From Octopus vulgaris (lineage: Eukaryota), in assembly GCA_951406725.2 (NCBI GenBank), contig OX597815.1, positions 150,226,001-150,290,000 on the forward strand: a stretch of 64,000 nt of DNA. The letters are read 5' to 3'. The number at the start of each line of letters is the position of its first letter. Positions within the stretch are counted from its first letter, which is position 1. Shown here piece after piece: positions 12,063-53,139 of this stretch. The notes beneath the pieces are model-generated. The model was not told the origin of the DNA and ran no database searches. It saw nothing but the letters and a program-made list of their open reading frames with translations. The translations under genes and the position numbers were made by a program.

Positions 12063-14577
12063 CGCACATATATGTGTGTATATGTATTGTTCGGGCAGCT
12101 TTGTGTTTTTAAGAGTGATATAGTTAGAGAGAGAAGGAGAGAGAGAGAACAATTGTGTTATGTAAATATTTACATTTGCATCTAAATGTAAATAACATTA
12201 AAATAAAAATTCTTTCCAGTGTTTGTGTCCCTTGGCCTTCTTGCATGTCGTCTCTTGGCGTATTTAACTTAGCACAAAATAAATAAATGATGTTGCTCAA
12301 ACTAAACTTAATGTAGGTTTTAAAATGTATTACTTTAGTCGTAAACTGTCAAATCGTTAACAATGTATATCTTCAATAATTAATATCCTCTAAGTGCCTA
12401 TGGTTTCGTACATTAGGTAAAACTTCTTTCTGCGTTTGCTTACATCACTCACCGTTCAAATCACGCTGATGTCGACTTCGGTATGGTTCATAAAAATAAA
12501 GCAATTGATACTTAGAAAGAAAATTATTATACATTGCTGTATCGCCATCACTGATTATCAGGTGTAAAGTAGAAGTGAAGATCTTAGACGTAATCGCCTA
12601 CTATCCGTTTCTTTTCATTATTTCTGGTCTGTATTGTACTCCAAGTGCTTAAGTTCGTCTTCGGTCGTATGGAGTTGCTTTCCATTCATAAACCGCTTCT
12701 TCTTTTCTGTGCTTTCTGTCCTACATCCATTTTCTTTGCGCAACGAGGAACGCGGAATGGATGATGGGTAAAGTTGTCCCCGGCTAGAAATTAATTCAGA
12801 AACCAGAAGCCCCAAGTAAGTACTACAATCTATTAACCCGACGCTCGAACGATTCAGCGAATTTCCCACCTTAATTGTCTATATTGTCCCCTAAATACAT
12901 TGGCCTTGTATAGGTATCATAATTAATTGCTTCTAATTGTAGCTGGTTGGCAGAATCGGTAAAGAAATTAGCAAAATGTATTTATGATATTTTGTATACG
13001 TTAGGCTTTCAAATGCAGCTGGATTTCATTTAACCTTTAATATCCTTATCAGTAATGCACTGGGGGCGGGCCCATTCCATCAATTAGATCGATTCTTAGA
13101 AATGTTGATATTATATTAGGAAACAAATCAACGTTTTATAGGTTTCAAGTGAAATGGTAGAAATAACAGTTTCGGTTTCAATACATAGCGGTACTTAATT
13201 GAAAATATTATTTCCGTTCCCTTGTTAAAATTCTATAAACGTTTACTTTACCTTTCATCAATGACATAATTACTAATAATAAATAAATAGTGAGATCGCT
13301 CCAATTGAACATAACCCTTCATTTACGCATACATGTATAAGTTTCTAGTGAAGTTAGAGATCGATACATAATAACCTCGGATATTATAAATTATAGGAAT
13401 GTCAATGAAGGGGAACGGAGTTACATTCCATCAACCTCGGTCATTTAAGGCTACCATACCTTTATGGTTGTTTATCATGTTCAGTGGATATGCAATTTAT
13501 AAATCCTTTGATTCGCTGCCTTGGCTACGAAATTTAGCTGATAAAAGTCTAATCGCACTTCTTAGGAAAGTTCTACTCGTAGAGAAATGATCGATTTGTT
13601 TCCATTCTAACCATAATGTTCAACAAAGGTACTTAACAGGCTTTCATGTGAATTAGAAAGGTGGTCGGTAACATTAATATATAATGCCTTCCTCAGCTTG
13701 TTAGCTTTCATTACTTTATCCTCTGCCGCCATCTCTTCCTGCAATGCACTGTCGTTGAAAAATGTCACTTTGGTTTGTGTTCACAATTGGCCCCTTCCCA
13801 AATGTGCAGCCTCGTATGCCTTTGTTATCAATAATTATCATTGTTATTGTTATGAATCTTTATCCTTCTCCTCCTTCTGTTACGCATCATCATTATCGTT
13901 TCCTTTACTTACCCTATTACTAACTATTACAACGCTTTCATAGTTCTCCCTCTCTATATATCCTTCAATCCCCCCTCTCTCTCTCTCTCTCTCCCTTCCT
14001 TTCTTGATTGATTTGCTTCTCCACAGTATTTCCTTTTCAGTACTTTCGAGTAGATTGTTAACGTAACTATATTCAGCATGAAAACCAGTTTCTCTCTTAA
14101 TCCATTATACCGAAAAACAAACAAAAATTGAAGCTGCAGCAGAAAATTATTCCGTGATGTTAATGGGTTTTTTTGCAATGTAAGTAAAATCATATTCAAT
14201 TCTGTTTCTATAAAATATATATATAACAATTTCTAATTTATTTTTGCTTTACATTTATACACGTTTCTCGGTTCACCGGTGTTAAAATAATTATTCTACT
14301 CTTCCATTTCTAAAATAATAATTAATTCCTGCTTGAATACACTACTGTTATATTTTTTTTTAACCGTAGCACATTTGCAGAATACTCTCTCACCTTTGTG
14401 CATGAAGCAACATAGAAGAGGTAAAAGTAATTACTTCTTCACTTTCTAAGTGTTTTACTTCAAATTGGTGTTCTATAAAACGTACAAATGTCACCAAAGT
14501 AACAATTGAATAGCAAAATTACCACCATTTTGAAATATTCAGCAGATATTTTCACCAAAATGTAAAACATTGATATA

Positions 14578-14630
<53 letters not shown>

Positions 14631-14655
14631 TATGGGACAATAATTTGGTTGCCAT

Positions 14656-14715
14656 AGTAAAACTCCGAGTTTCGGATGTCGGGGCGGAAATCTGCTCCGG
14701 CATCTCGTCAGTTAT
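14656..14715 (-). ncRNA. Type I hammerhead ribozyme motif, intact core
   Basis: ataa-CTGACGA-gatgccggagcagatttccgccccgacatcc-GAAA-ctcggag-TT-ttac: long pairing stem II, stem III ctc/gag, GUU cleavage triplet. Confidence 0.75.
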
Positions 14716-14738
14716 CAAGGCGATCAAAAAATGCCTTC

Positions 14739-14797
14739 ACAACCGACGAGATACCGGAGCAGATTTCCACCCCGACATCTGAAACTCGGAGTTTTAT
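14739..14797 (+). ncRNA. Hammerhead motif, second copy (core CCGACGA, U4 to C)
   Basis: acaa-CCGACGA-gataccggagc...cccgacatct-GAAA-ctcggag-TT-ttat. Confidence 0.6.
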
Positions 14798-14901
14798 TAT
14801 GGCAACCAAATAATTGTCACATATTATATTACAGATAAATTCCTCTATTTCCATAATATCTGGGTTACATTGATTCATTTATCATACCATTCCTACTGAT
14901 A

Positions 14902-14951
<50 letters not shown>

Positions 14952-15747: not shown

Positions 15748-15794
<47 letters not shown>

Positions 15795-15798
<4 letters not shown>

Positions 15799-16215
15799 AG
15801 GGAGTATCCAAAAGCAACCGGAAACTTTCTCTGTGAAACAAACCCGTTGTAGTTCGGGGGCTGCCGCTAGAAGCCACTCAATGTGACCCTCAGGCCTCAG
15901 TCTGTCGACCGATGTCGTCGACTAGAGTCCTACTGCCACGTGGTACCTCATTGTTTTGCAATACTTCTTCCCTATTCGTTGAATTTTGTGATGGCTAATA
16001 CGAGGGAATAGCATTTTTCTGTGAAATTCTGCTTTCTGCTGGGGAAAACGATGGGCAAAATATTTTTCGTGCTTCAAACAGCTTAGAAGGAAGCTGCAAT
16101 GAGGAAAACACATGTTTACGAGTGGTTTCCGCGCTGTAGGAATGGTCACTTGTCGCTTGGGGACCAGCCGCTTCCAGGACGACCGTCGACCGCTCGAACA
16201 AATGAAAATATTATG
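15795..16215 (+). mobile_element. 5' part of a mariner transposon (HTH domain pseudogene)
   Basis: ATG at 15991; VKFCFLLGK...VYEWFPRCRNGHLSLGDQPLPGRPSTARTNEN with the GRPS motif; begins at (TA)n. Confidence 0.8.
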
Positions 16216-17005
16216 CATTAAGCGCAGGAGTGCCTTGTTGTAAGTAGCTTGCTTACTTCCGGTTACCCAGAATGCAACACTAGTTGGTCTGGACTGTTGT
16301 AGAGAGAAGACGTGAGTTTTGGCTCCATTAATAGAAAAAAGAACAAAAAGAAAAATTGTCAATTGTGTTCTCATCACCATAACGGTGAATTAAGAATTTT
16401 TGCTTGAAAATTCTTAGTGTGGCTTTTTTTCGCCAAATAATTTGTCAATACTAGCGGGCGTATCTCGCTAGAAAAAGTAGAATTTTACCGAACTGGAGTA
16501 CTTCAAGAATAACCCGGACTATTGGATTACCTGTTGGAGTATTATACAAAGGATTCCCTGTCTGTTCTATTTGTGAGGTTTTTCTTTTATTTTTCCCCTC
16601 TTCTAATCTTTCTTTCTCTTAAATTTTGGTTCATTCTTTTCATTATTTTAATTTCAGTTTCCTTTTCTTCTCTTATTTTCTTTTACTTCTATTTTTATTC
16701 GGTTTTACTTTTGTGGTGGACTGTTTTTTTTAACTACTTTCGAACAGTTTTTTTTTTTTGGGGGGGGGGGATGGCTGAGAAGGAAGTAAAAAGAAGAACT
16801 CTGTCTTAGAGTGAGAAATTAACCCGTCTAAGCAGTGGTTAAAAGATATGGAGGAGATGACGTGGTGGTTAGAACTTATTCTAAACTTCTTGATTCCATC
16901 ACCGTCTTCCCAAAACCAATTATAGAAAATGAACTGAAAGACTATTTGTCCTCTGTGAAATACATATCCCGTGATGTCAAACATGCAACTATATGGTTGC
17001 TGTTC

Positions 17006-17470
17006 GAATCGTGGAAAACGCGCCGGGACCGGTGTAAAACTAATTGAATGAAATAATACTGCAAAACACCATGTTTTGTGAGGTTACCCCCTCGTGCTTT
17101 GAATCGGGCAAAACGTGCCGGGACCGGTCTAAAACTAATTGAATAAAAGGATATTGCAAGCCTTCGGATTTTGGATTACCTCCTCGTCCTACGAATCGTG
17201 AAAAACGCGCCGAGGCCGGTGTAAAACTAATTGATTAATATGATATTGCTAACTTCGGATTTGGTGGCTTATCCCTTCGTGATACGAATTGTGGAAAATG
17301 CGCCGGGACCACTGTAAAATTAATTGGATACAATAATATTTCAAAACTCCGGGTTTGGGTGGGGTTGCTTCCTCGTGCTTTGTATGGTGGAAAACGCACC
17401 GGGACCAGTGTAAAATTAATTGAATAAAATATTTCAAAATTACAGGTTTTTGGTGGGATTACCCCCTAGT
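17006..17470 (+). repeat. Minisatellite: five diverged units of about 94 bp
   Basis: Unit starts at 17006, 17101, 17193, 17286 and 17382; core gaaaacgcgccgggaccggtgtaaaactaattga. Confidence 0.9.
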
Positions 17471-36329: not shown

Positions 36330-39250
36330 CACGCACAACACTCGTGCAACACGCTTCCATCTCTTTTGAAACGTAGACTCCGACAGACATCTCTTCTCCA
36401 ACTACAGCTTCCTTTTCAAAGGAAAAGAAAAAAATGATCGTAAATTGTGGCAAGAGATAAAGTTGCCTGACTGAATTCCTTTTATCCTAGTTTTCCATAC
36501 TGCCTCTTTCGCTATTGCTACAACGTGAGAAAACAATTCTTACCTTCGTTCGTTAAAACTCCCGGTGGGTCAATTATTATAATTGACTCAGTGGACAGCT
36601 ATACTCTTCCTTCGCTGGACAATAGGTGTTCAGCATAAGCCCACATTTCAGTTATCTCCAGACATTGAACAATAGCGTGAAGGACGGTTTCCCTGTGTCT
36701 CTCCCCACTGCATCTTGGACAGGTCAGCGACTGACGCTTACCATGTCTTGCGAGCTTATCCCAAACGAGCATTGCCAGGTTTAGGACTTTTGGAAGTTAT
36801 CTAACGTCCTCAACCCGAATGTACGGTGAAACCGGCTGTCCAGTTGAATACACCCGAGACCCAGAGTCGCCCCCAGACCATCGTCGCATTCAGGCTCTAC
36901 CAACCCACTATATACAATCCGTGTTGAACCCCCACCGCTGGCATTTCCCGAGCGCTAGAATAGCAAGTGGGATTTACGGCACTCTTTATGCCATGCACTC
37001 GACCTCGGTCTACGAGAACACCAGGCTTCCTGTTCGCAAAAACTTTTGAACTCGGGGAACATATGTTTGGTCTGCGGAGACCACACCCGTTCACTGTCCA
37101 GGAGAATCCAGAGGTGCCCCAACCTCAACGCATGTCTGCGCATCATTAACCAAGGCAACCCTAAACCTCCCTTTAAAGGCTTTTCACAGCAGACAGAGCG
37201 TTTCACAAGTGGTGACCTGTCCTTCCACAAAAAAAAACGTAAGAGCTGTCTCTCCAACCTGATAAACCACGAATCCAGACTGGGCACGACGGTCAGTGGT
37301 AGGTAATGACCAATGCAATAAACACATTGACCACCTCCGCCCTCCCTTTCAGGGATAGCCACCGCAAAGACCAGGTCTTGACTACTGCAGCCACCCTGCT
37401 CAATAACTCCGTCCACTTCTTCTCTATTTGGAGGCCTGGTCCAAACCAAACTGCCAGCAACTTAACCGGTCCCTCCGTACAGCGCCTATCAATGCTGTCT
37501 GAAGGCATCGACTTGCTAATCCAGGTGCCAAGCTGCAACCCGACCGACTTTTCCCGGTTAATCTTTGCTCCTGGCACCTTCCCGTAAACCTCAATAGCCT
37601 TACTCACTTCACGTAGGCGTGCTACCGAGGTTACGCTAATAGTGATATCATCCACGTAAGCCGGAGCAAACTCCTCTAGATCTTATTTTCTCGGGATGAC
37701 ACTCAACCTTCAAAGTAGGGTCTCGAGAGCCATCACATGCAAAATTGGTGAGAGCGGATATTCTTGACGAACCGTGCGTCTGATGCAGAACGGCTTCGAA
37801 AGGAAACCGTCCACCCAAACTATCGAGTGAAAGTAGTGGTACAACAGTAGATGCCCGAAGAAGTCTGGCATGCATTTATACAGCTCGTACGGAAGAGCAT
37901 CAGGTCCCGGCGACTTACCCGCTTTACAGTCGACCAAAGCCTCCATCACCTCCACAGGCGTGATTGGCCCTTCGCAAGACTCCGCATCCGACCTCGAGAG
38001 GCACGGCAATCCGGCAAGAAAGTCCTAGAGGGCTCTTCCACCACCAGGACCACCGTCCCTCCCGAACAGCTGGGCGAAGTACTCCCGAAAGGCCTCACAC
38101 ATTTTCTCGGGTTCATTTATCAAGATACCATTTTGATTCGTCAAAGATCGAATAGTGGAAATATTTCCTTGCCGAGCTTCCACCACTCGGGCCCATCCCA
38201 CGGCCTTGATTCCTTCACTTACCATCGCACGTAACTTAGCTCTGGCAATACCTCTCAGGTGTTGGGCTTCAAGATGCTGGTTTAGCTCCAGTCTTTTCAC
38301 CCTCGCTTATTCCGCATTACCAGTCCTCCAGGCTTCTTCTAGTTCCTTAACTAGACCATCTCCTATTCTACGTCCCTTCTTGGCTAAATTTATGCTAAAA
38401 CTAATAGACTCATATTTGATGGCTCTTTTTAGGACGTACCACCATTTGTTATTAATGAAGGTACCTGTTAATGCCCTCTGTATTAACATCTTGATTCGCT
38501 TTCTGTACTCGTTAATCGCCAAAAGGGACGTATTAAGTTTCCAGTAGCCAGATCCCTGACTATGCAACGTATCTACCATCTTGTGGTCACTGTAGCTGAC
38601 TAGAAAAAACTGTAAACACTGCTATGGACTTATCTGTTTCTAGATATCCTATCTAGATATCTTCTGGAAGACCCGTCACTATTTGACCACGTCCACTGTG
38701 GAGTGTTCGGTTGTTCCAACCTATATGGATCTGCTAGCTGAAATTGACTTAGCAGAACCTGTAACCCCGGGTTACATTTTCTGTTCATGTTAGAGCCAAC
38801 ACAATCTGTGTGTGCTTCTCTTGTTGTGTTAAAGTCTCCTAACAATACTAGCGAATGCGACGTGGTTAGGAACTTGCCCGGGTCACGAAAATATTCACTT
38901 TGTAGGCCCATAATGTTGGGTGCATAAATAGCGACTAGCCTGATTATCTTGCCACAATCGAATGTCAGGTCAAGAACGACTAGCATGCCTTCTGGGTCAG
39001 AAAAACAAACTTTTTCTAGGCTACACGGTTTCTTTTTAGTAGGACCAACACCACCACCTCCCACGACTCGGAGAAACATATTTCTCGTAGCCGCTCAGGA
39101 GGGGGAGCAGATCTCTTGGCCCCATCACCCGGGTTTCTATTGCAACAATTACATCCAAATTTCTCGACCTGATGTTATTTAGGAAGCCCCCTTACTTCCA
39201 AATTGACATCAGGAAACGAACATTTATACAACCAATGTGAATAGACGTGA
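36330..39250 (-). pseudogene. LINE ORF2: APE endonuclease plus reverse transcriptase, frameshifted
   Basis: IGCINVR, AIYAPN, LLGDFN, WTW...YLDRI, GSGYWKLNTSLL, GKSPGPDALPYELYK, VRQEYPLSP, (Y)VDD, GAKINREKS, LSLKGRAEVVN, KGGLGLP. Confidence 0.92.
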
Positions 39251-51754: not shown

Positions 51755-52552
51755 TTCTTTTTACTCTTGGCACAAGGACCAAAATTCTGGGGGAGGGAGC
51801 AAGTCGATTAGATCAACCCCAGCACGCCACTGGTTCTTAATTTATCGATCCTGAAAGGATTAAAGGCAAAGTCGATCTCGGCGGAATTTGAGCTCAAAGA
51901 ATTAAGACAGACGAAAGTTTCTATTTCTGACCACAAGGGGTTAAACATAGAAGGGACAGACAAGGACAGACAAAGGGATTAAGTGGATTACATCGACCCC
52001 AGTGCGTAACTGGTACTTAATTTATCGACCCCGAAATGATGAAAAGCACAGTCGACCTCGGCGTAATTTGAACTCAAACCGTAAAGACAGACAAAATACC
52101 GCTAAGAATTTCGCTCGGCGTGCTAACGTTTCTGCTAGCTCGCCGCCTTAGGAATTCTTTTCGAATCTAGGCTCAAGGGCCGAAATTTTGGGGGAGAGCA
52201 TCAATCGATTAGATCGACCCCAGTACGCAACTGGTACTTAATTTATAGACCCCGAAAGGATGAAAAGCAAACACGACCTCGACGGAATTTCAACTCAGAA
52301 CGTAGCGACAGATGAAATACCTATTTCTTTACTACCCACAAGGGGCTAAACACAGAGGGGACAAACAAGGACAGACAAACGGATTAAGTCGATTATATTG
52401 ACCCCACTACGCAACTGGTACTTAATTTACAGATCCCGAAAGAATGAAAAGTAAACTCGACCTCGGCGGAATTTGAACTCAGAACGTAGCGGCAGACGAA
52501 ATAGCGCTAAATATTTCGCCCGGTGTGCTAACGTTTCTGCCAGCTCTCTGCC
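51755..52552 (-). mobile_element. Two tandem SINE dimers (four monomers)
   Basis: Alternating tail-A and tail-B units; junctions gacgaaagtttctatttc (about 51915) and gatgaaatacc|tatttc (about 52321). Confidence 0.85.
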
Positions 52553-53139
52553 TTCCTCGTTTCTATTTTTAATTCTAAAACATTTCGAATTGGAAAAGAA
52601 ACACCCATCGCTCCTCCAATAATCATTATAAATTGTTTCTAACATAAGCATTAACCCTAAAATTTGTGAAGACGTGGCGATTAATCGATTAAATAAAACC
52701 TAGTTCTTGTATGGCCCATTATTTTATCAACCACGGGGAGACAAAAGCCACAGCTTATTTCGGCTAACACAGAACGTAAAGAGCCAGAACGAATTATTCA
52801 AGACAGCGTTCCGACTTTTCACCAATTCTGCTATCGTCCTACAAGAACCTCAAATTAATAATTAGTAACTGTAATGACTTGAGTTGGTAGAATCGATAGA
52901 ACGGTTAGCGAGGTTTTGAATTTTACGTCAAGAGTTCAAATCCCACCAAGATAAACTTCGTTTTTATAACTTTTAGGGGTTCGATAAAATAACTACCTGT
53001 TGATTACCGGAGCCAATGTAATCGACTTGCACTCCGCTGCCGAAATTGCTGACCAAAACTGAAACGCTTTTGAAATTAAATGGATTGAAACTGTTAAAGT
53101 GATGGGACGCCACGATGAATGATATTTATCTATTATCAT

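Follow-up and report, generated by a model that had tools for sequence, protein, structure and literature searches.

The window, a stretch of 64,000 nucleotides from the Octopus vulgaris genome, carries an inverted repeat embedded in (TA)n whose arms (14625-14721 and 14733-14829) are 97 nt each, 90% complementary and separated by 11 nt. A hairpin of about 195 bp with 92-bp arms had been described in an earlier note made from the letters of the window; it is real, with 9 mismatches across the 92-bp arms and a repeat that extends to 97 nt. The predicted fold reaches -163 kcal/mol, compared with -63.8 kcal/mol for shuffled sequences (z -21.5), and none of 200 shuffles equals it. On a scale that places C3 of the hammerhead ribozyme (HHR) core at 0 and the predicted cut at +50/+51, the left arm (14625-14734, minus strand) corresponds to a tail-less, 5'-truncated 3' end of a Penelope-like element (PLE) running from -23 to about +86. 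The right arm (14732-14900, plus strand) runs from -11 to the element 3' end, as judged by alignment to an old copy (L080), which matches the whole arm, and to a young copy (L114), which matches from the core onward. Only the right arm bears a tail of about 70 nt (about 14830-14900, plus strand), noticed earlier as a one-sided extension; it probably spans the stretch from one reverse-transcription start site to the other. No true spacer separates the arms, despite the 11-nt 'loop': the left arm extends to -23, the right arm begins at -11, and the two overlap at the head-to-head joint in 3 nt of microhomology (TGC/GCA, 14732-14734). This joint recurs in L002, a locus of a different N7 lineage, and in mirror form in L023. 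The target microsatellites lie at 14573-14629 on the left (14573-14633 in the TRF call) and at 14899-14948 on the right, in agreement with the microsatellite targeting proposed earlier and with the habit of Hydra-clade PLEs, which target (TA)n according to the available part of PMC8557442. The element was said to lack an ORF, and tblastn indeed detects nothing of the parent ORF there. The copy is an old, probably inactive relic of an older sister subfamily, of which no intact master was found in the genome searches.

Two hammerhead motifs lie head-to-head in the hairpin with their 3' ends pointing outward to (TA)n, as had been claimed. The left motif (14649-14723, minus strand) is a predicted type I HHR with the core CUGACGA, GAAAC and GUU, C3 at 14711, H17 at 14661, an extended stem I, a long stem II and a palindromic stem III (ACUC-G-GAGU). 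One extra pyrimidine stands ahead of GAAA in an otherwise canonical core, and cleavage is predicted between 14661 and 14660. The right motif (14732-14805, plus strand; C3 at 14743, H17 at 14793, predicted cut site 14793/14794) is decayed, with CCGACGA in its core (U4C), two mismatches in stem I and one in stem II. Core and stems are those of a type I hammerhead in the left motif and depart from them in the right, by U4C and the broken stem I. Rfam returned no hammerhead in the window at E<=5 or even E<=10, and only hairpin-type families below the gathering score; the HHR identity is argued from the motif itself, from how it varies between copies and from the published Hydra-clade HHRs. Across 27 distinct arms, drawn from several subfamilies, pairing holds in 91% of 513 cells and 5/19 pairs have changed on both sides; the search pattern had fixed part of stems II and III beforehand, and kinship inflates the shuffle test. 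Lineage variation concentrates at N7, H17 and the centre of stem III (ACTC-N-GAGT), and distal stem I covaries (GCC/GGC in 34, GTC/GAC in 4 and the wobble form GTC/GGC in 11). The same stem III form is listed for several Hydra HHRs in PMC8557442, and palindromic stems III are described as typical of dimer-acting PLE ribozymes in the accessible sections of PMC4209133 and PMC6765202. HHRs of the window type are predicted to need a dimer for self-cleavage, with a stem III self-duplex of -12.1 kcal/mol.

The hairpin had been expected to compete with ribozyme folding, and in prediction it does so heavily: the window transcript folds at -163 kcal/mol as a hairpin and at -73.8 kcal/mol once the left HHR is imposed, a cost of about 89 kcal/mol. 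Ribozyme cleavage within this transcript is unlikely on these models because the hairpin wins energetically and each strand holds only one sense HHR. In the old family, the strand antisense to the ribozyme forms a 13-bp hairpin with G.U pairs across stem II (14676-14705, plus strand), and the ribozyme strand has A.C mismatches there; the young subfamily differs. The young, apparently recently active subfamily (L113-L132, e.g. L114:5150-5334) combines a U4C HHR core with YKDD at the reverse transcriptase (RT) active site. U4C is present in 139/140 parsed young arms, and this change is said to reduce hammerhead activity in vitro (excerpt of PMC3088659). The young-subfamily ribozyme may, to judge by its sequence, be decaying within a successful lineage.

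The parentage of the window arm in a PLE follows from longer copies, which run upstream into a putative RT-endonuclease ORF. Their homology extends more than 850 nt upstream beyond the arm, and L062/L076 retain a decayed ORF end upstream of the HHR arm. With that fragment as query, the genome gave 10,462 candidates, of which 150 were scored. Among these, a young subfamily (L113-L115) has an intact ORF of 709 aa counted from the first Met; it is 75% identical to the old fragment over 113 aa, and the 3' end of the young element is 78% identical to the window arm over 120 nt. The ORF contains RWK38, DKT115, CSCRNKELC558 (CxCX5C), CGLC661 (CxxC) and CPH692 (CxH), together with YKDD and YVGLT motifs, the full unit is 2,589 nt, under 3 kb as in the Hydra clade, and insertions sit in (TA)n as expected for that clade. 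RWK, DKT, CxCX5C, CxxC, CxH, a unit below 3 kb and insertion in (TA)n are the Hydra-clade marks given in the part of PMC8557442 at hand, and a comparison by eye with Hydra-1_Obim in the available supplement of that paper shows long peptide stretches in common, a likeness that points to a cephalopod as host. Pfam and PDB sequence searches with the ORF returned no match, one of 40 ORF homologues matches GIY-YIG weakly, and none of the 120 homologues listed carries a name. Taken together, the motifs and the upstream homology leave us in very little doubt that the arm corresponds to a Hydra-clade PLE 3' end, and the Penelope-like origin with inverted 3' arms that had been proposed is upheld.

The family is large. 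The family search of the 2.8-Gb genome gave 3,887 candidates, of which 40 were scored and 30 loci retrieved; a loose pattern of HHR core plus stem II matches 8,279 times (control 0). In the young family, one 32-nt motif 3' of the HHR has 2,203 exact genome matches, and the first 100 of them, all on contig C1 and covered by 63 loci, form the insertion sample. For ends in the old subfamily there were 191 motif matches, the first 100 of which gave 60 loci; tandem junctions come from the first 100 of 149. Arm lengths range from tens of nucleotides up to the complete 2.6-kb unit. The 3' ends of young arms fall at about +90 in 44/113 and about +157 in 61/113, and of 37 two-armed young insertions, 36 combine a tailed end with a tail-less one. 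A 5'-truncated copy with an adjacent inverted truncated copy is present, as in PLE insertions, in which inverted truncated copies and a tail on one side are the rule. By its sequence, the two-armed tailed anatomy belongs to an already known PLE kind, and what is added as a testable mechanistic part is a short class of palindromes and a set of leader concatemers, described below.

The two arms of an insertion share a history. In old pairs, excluding 10 pairs found through core patterns, the arms agree at N7 in 34/41 (expected 19.4) and at H17 in 36/41 (expected 20.6), which indicates that both arms of one insertion derive from one source lineage. Mean arm identity in the old subfamily is 0.882 within pairs versus 0.825 between pairs, a modest excess because the copies are old, and only 18 of 102 old arms have their own partner as the strict best match. 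Larger structures also occur: L241/L242 (G000:C1:57.208-57.223 Mb) and L323-L327 are head-to-tail arrays of four to five 2,589-nt units, some forming one giant inverted structure, and L410-L413 (G000:C1:206.0-207.1 Mb) represent a single insertion present four times together with its flanks, in a segmental duplication cluster.

Very short palindromes make up a separate class, bounded 1-37 nt upstream of the HHR core. For 62 young insertions, the 5' end of the longest arm lies at -37 to -1 in 15, at -137 to -38 in none, at 0 to +100 in 6 and further upstream in 41, and the two arms of a young insertion (n=39) are both short in 11 cases, mixed in 3 and both long in 25. The old subfamily gives 17 ends in the hot zone against 5 in the compared zone among 59 anchor arms, after removal of L164, L166, L189, L251 and L268, long copies with deletions whose ends (-36 to -56) had been misread as short. 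In a pooled set, which combines searches directed at short pairs and at jumps and from which 8/63 hot-zone and 27/127 upstream 'ends' were dropped as alignment stops within longer arms, the 55 true hot-zone ends cluster from -36 to -10 with a mode at -14 (C|A).

These ends have features of RNA starts. Pyrimidine-purine (YR) steps occur at 30/55 hot-zone ends versus 24/100 upstream ends, and an untemplated G stands directly before the end in 25/52 versus 17/74. With jump joins excluded, a direct G is found in 15/40 versus 17/74 (p=0.13) and G or GA, a class defined post hoc, in 22/40 versus 19/74 (p=0.002). An extra G opposite the cap is a signature of RTs, and YR starts are typical of RNA polymerase II. 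A dC-adding RT could produce the same signal without a cap, since the R2 RT adds untemplated bases, mainly A, and requires such additions for jumping (PMC8857657, in the part available). For Drosophila Penelope, the available text of PMC2377424 and PMC4209133 places an internal start 46 nt ahead of an intron whose end lies at HHR helix I, a similar leader length. A splice acceptor was tried as the cause of the hot zone and rejected, as no exon sequence is common to the regions upstream of the ends. Cleavage by the HHR as the cause of truncation was likewise not supported: ends at +51, 52, 55 and 57 amount to 4/72, one of these is accounted for by stem I microhomology, and adjacent bins are equally dense. 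In the old copies L078-L080, three repeats of a AACGGTCA-like word, which resembles Myb or initiator sites, lie upstream of the hot zone between -150 and -30; one lineage has a single repeat.

A second group of products contains the same 5' boundary in direct repeat. Eleven loci (14 matches; L391-L404) and L350 contain an ORF-less leader unit of about 270-330 nt, consisting of the HHR, the tail and the 5' UTR to +247 to +296 (the ATG is at +262), followed by a jump to -36 to -9. The search pattern confined both ends to a window of about 60 nt and left inserted bases unconstrained, so the clustering of concatemer ends is partly imposed. The base before re-entry is an untemplated G in 10 of 12 loci, with GA in one and T in one; in three loci both arms re-enter at an identical base, and L385/L399 have GG before -36 on two successive passes. 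Five concatemers exit at an A-run near +293 to +296. Because the joins bear an extra G and lie away from the HHR cut site, the concatemers point to template jumping rather than to ribozyme-made circles.

We consider it probable that the hairpin in the window is a very short two-armed Hydra-clade insertion in (TA)n, likely one short leader RNA copied twice and joined head-to-head. In the proposed pathway, the PLE protein, probably as a dimer, would cut both (TA)n strands, and priming at two internal start sites, separated by about 67 nt, would yield two cDNAs, with the interval between the sites appearing as the tail. The template would be a short sense RNA that starts in the dispersed, probably capped cluster at -36 to -10, with its mode at -14. 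Both cDNAs would run off the RNA 5' end, be trimmed and anneal via a few self-complementary bases, and the enzyme would sometimes jump from the RNA 5' end to about +247 to +296 and recopy the leader. The ribozyme would be a passenger, as its cut site at +50/+51 does not bound the products and the finished hairpin is predicted to sequester it. The step that calls for a short capped leader RNA, taken on its own, has in our judgement a somewhat better than even chance of being right. The mechanism is carried over to the window copy from the young sister subfamily, the window copy itself lying in the older one. A wider proposal, which we hold tentatively and place just short of an even chance, is that one capped PLE leader RNA, with the start cluster, the HHR, the tail, the 5' UTR and an end near the ATG, is copied twice per insertion and recopied by cap-to-3'-end jumps, and so is the source of both the thousand-odd hairpins and the tandem ribozyme repeats. 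If true, retrozymes can arise without ribozyme cleavage, and the template would be fixed as a sense, capped RNA.

The best-surviving alternative, which we regard as unlikely, works from long templates only: the RT would stall at or just past a folded or protein-bound HHR and the cDNAs would join or fold back, or long palindromes would lose their centres. Tandem-junction ends are in broad excess from +100 to -37 (29/100), as a stall would predict, and some joints exploit stem I self-complementarity (L243, L256, L384). Long inverted repeats are unstable, which favours loss of centres, yet kilobase palindromes persist in this genome at 97-99.7% identity to the reference copy. A stall sits poorly with the sharp edge at -36 and the 0/62 insertions in the next 100 nt upstream, with the untemplated G and YR bias at the ends, and with leader concatemers whose two arms share the re-entry base. 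The hot-zone stop rate is also lower on the second pass: at tandem junctions 6 of 71 cDNAs that reach the zone stop in it, against 22 of 98 for the first pass (p=0.02, from arms that are not independent), and four of those six stops are themselves leader-jump products. Moreover, 27/100 tandem-junction cDNAs continue past 1.3 kb. The lower second-pass rate and this run-on make a simple stall at each pass the poorer fit. The rarity of such stops among long cDNAs also counts against the leader reading: most long copies would come from templates that extend further upstream, so that -36 to -10 would not bound every RNA, and one fixed 5' end common to all RNAs was rejected on the tandem-junction ends. 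Long copies appear to derive from tandem or circular templates. Four contig sets, from runs guessed to be RNA, have the tail-to-unit tandem joint in 4/4 and no splice joint; these contigs are without molecule ends and are silent on expression, and their step in depth near the HHR was left out of account. Among tandem-junction ends, 9/72 fall at +83 to +101, around the tail-less start site (L309, L349, L366, L390 and others), several with tail micro-palindromes.

A second alternative, close to the one first proposed for this locus, takes the palindrome as a non-autonomous element whose full length is transcribed and retrotransposed. Its appeal lies in abundance and in shared joints: the two-core head-to-head pattern, with cores 3-50 nt apart, matches 921 loci in the genome against 4 in the control (3 of the first 50 matches look unrelated), and among the first 50 loci five share one perfect joint and four others share another together with its flanks. 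The five, however, are centred on the 6-nt palindrome TGGCCA and differ in lineage variants and tail side, and the four are segmental duplicates because their flanks are shared. A spacer common to many copies had been suggested as a check, and private joints as evidence against the proposal; no spacer is identical among 58 short pairs, and in another set 28 of 28 loci differ in their centre by eye. Recurring joints are self-complementary words in different lineages or lie in duplicated flanks, and arm sizes form a continuous range up to full length. As joints are private or recur through microhomology, the palindrome is best read as an insertion product rather than a replicating unit, and whole-palindrome mobility is very unlikely. 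Of the double-hammerhead element first proposed, mobility as a palindrome is therefore not supported, while a short non-coding template is probable, in the form of a single arm.

Very unlikely too, and by a hair more so, is the model of PMC3846280, whose available part argues for an antisense template in PLE head-to-head repeats, with self-priming on an antisense transcript making the repeat. Perfect or near-perfect palindromic joints in L041, L240 and L253 would suit it, as would the better antisense pairing of old-subfamily stem II (3 G.U versus 3 A.C). The longer arm, however, may be either the tailed or the tail-less one, many arms differ by hundreds of bases, the G and YR signs stand at sense 5' ends, and the young subfamily has, by eye, no antisense pairing advantage. 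Priming at two start sites from both sides of the cut is the better fit to the anatomy than antisense-RNA fold-back, as far as sequence can tell. Finally, a TA-targeting MITE of a DNA transposon, named earlier as an alternative and suggested by the short inverted repeat in TA context, is refuted by the asymmetric ends, variable centre, absence of a fixed length and contiguous RT-type ORF.

The closest known relatives are the Hydra-clade PLEs (Craig et al. 2021, PMC8557442), with Hydra-1_Obim nearest. The octopus family resembles them in unit size, RWK/DKT/CxCX5C motifs, a putative C-terminal endonuclease, (TA)n insertion, a 3' HHR with an actc-n-gagt stem III and an inverted 5'-truncated copy. 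It is distinct from Hydra-1_Obim since its HHR sequence differs from the one listed there. Against the Hydra clade as portrayed in the accessible part of that paper, the octopus tail is about 67 nt rather than 30-40 nt, the RT motif is YKDD rather than YRDD, and the HHR differs in the extra pyrimidine before GAAA and in the prevalence of U4C among young arms; the same part makes no mention of a short-product class or of leader concatemers for the clade. Paired minimal HHRs in Schistosoma mansoni are likewise close, on opposite strands and ascribed to truncated PLEs, in the sections of Cervera and De la Pena (2014, PMC4209133) available to us, but lie 100-700 bp apart and are described there with no analysis of their ends, whereas in octopus the two cores commonly stand 3-50 nt from each other and have a defined limit upstream.

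For the biochemistry, the nearest precedent is Poseidon PAc in vitro (Frangieh et al. 2024, PMC11167929), for which the available text describes cleavage and extension of both strands, a tail set by two internal start sites, and dispensable HHR cleavage. PAc belongs to a different clade and its tail overlaps the ORF start, whereas the octopus tail stops about 105 nt short of the ATG; joined palindromes are not among the in vitro products described in that text, which gives two start sites in vitro and does not show a finished insertion. Non-LTR retrozymes (Li et al. 2026, 10.64898/2026.07.22.740005), ORF-less and pLTR-derived with type I HHRs in the excerpt at hand, resemble the leader concatemers as direct repeats of HHR units. 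The window element is inverted and not tandem, unlike those retrozymes, and direct repeats occur only in the 12 concatemer loci elsewhere. A start-site-limited mini-palindrome class or PLE leader concatemers were not found described in the literature searched, which included few subscription papers and not Repbase.

In young-family insertions, start sites, 5' ends and joints can be read to the base, which makes both twin priming on sense RNA and a template-jump origin of retrozyme-like repeats directly testable. About a thousand near-perfect hairpins of about 200 bp could also feed double-stranded-RNA pathways if transcribed.

Further repeats lie elsewhere in the window. The sequence at 15794-15990 begins right after a TA tract and resembles a mariner-type terminal repeat. 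A 92-bp unit is repeated 4.5 times with 75% matches at 17005-17431, and broken ORF pieces at 36958-39094 (minus strand) look by eye like a LINE endonuclease and RT. A 405-bp unit occurs in two copies at 51765-52554, which we take to resemble an octopus SINE.
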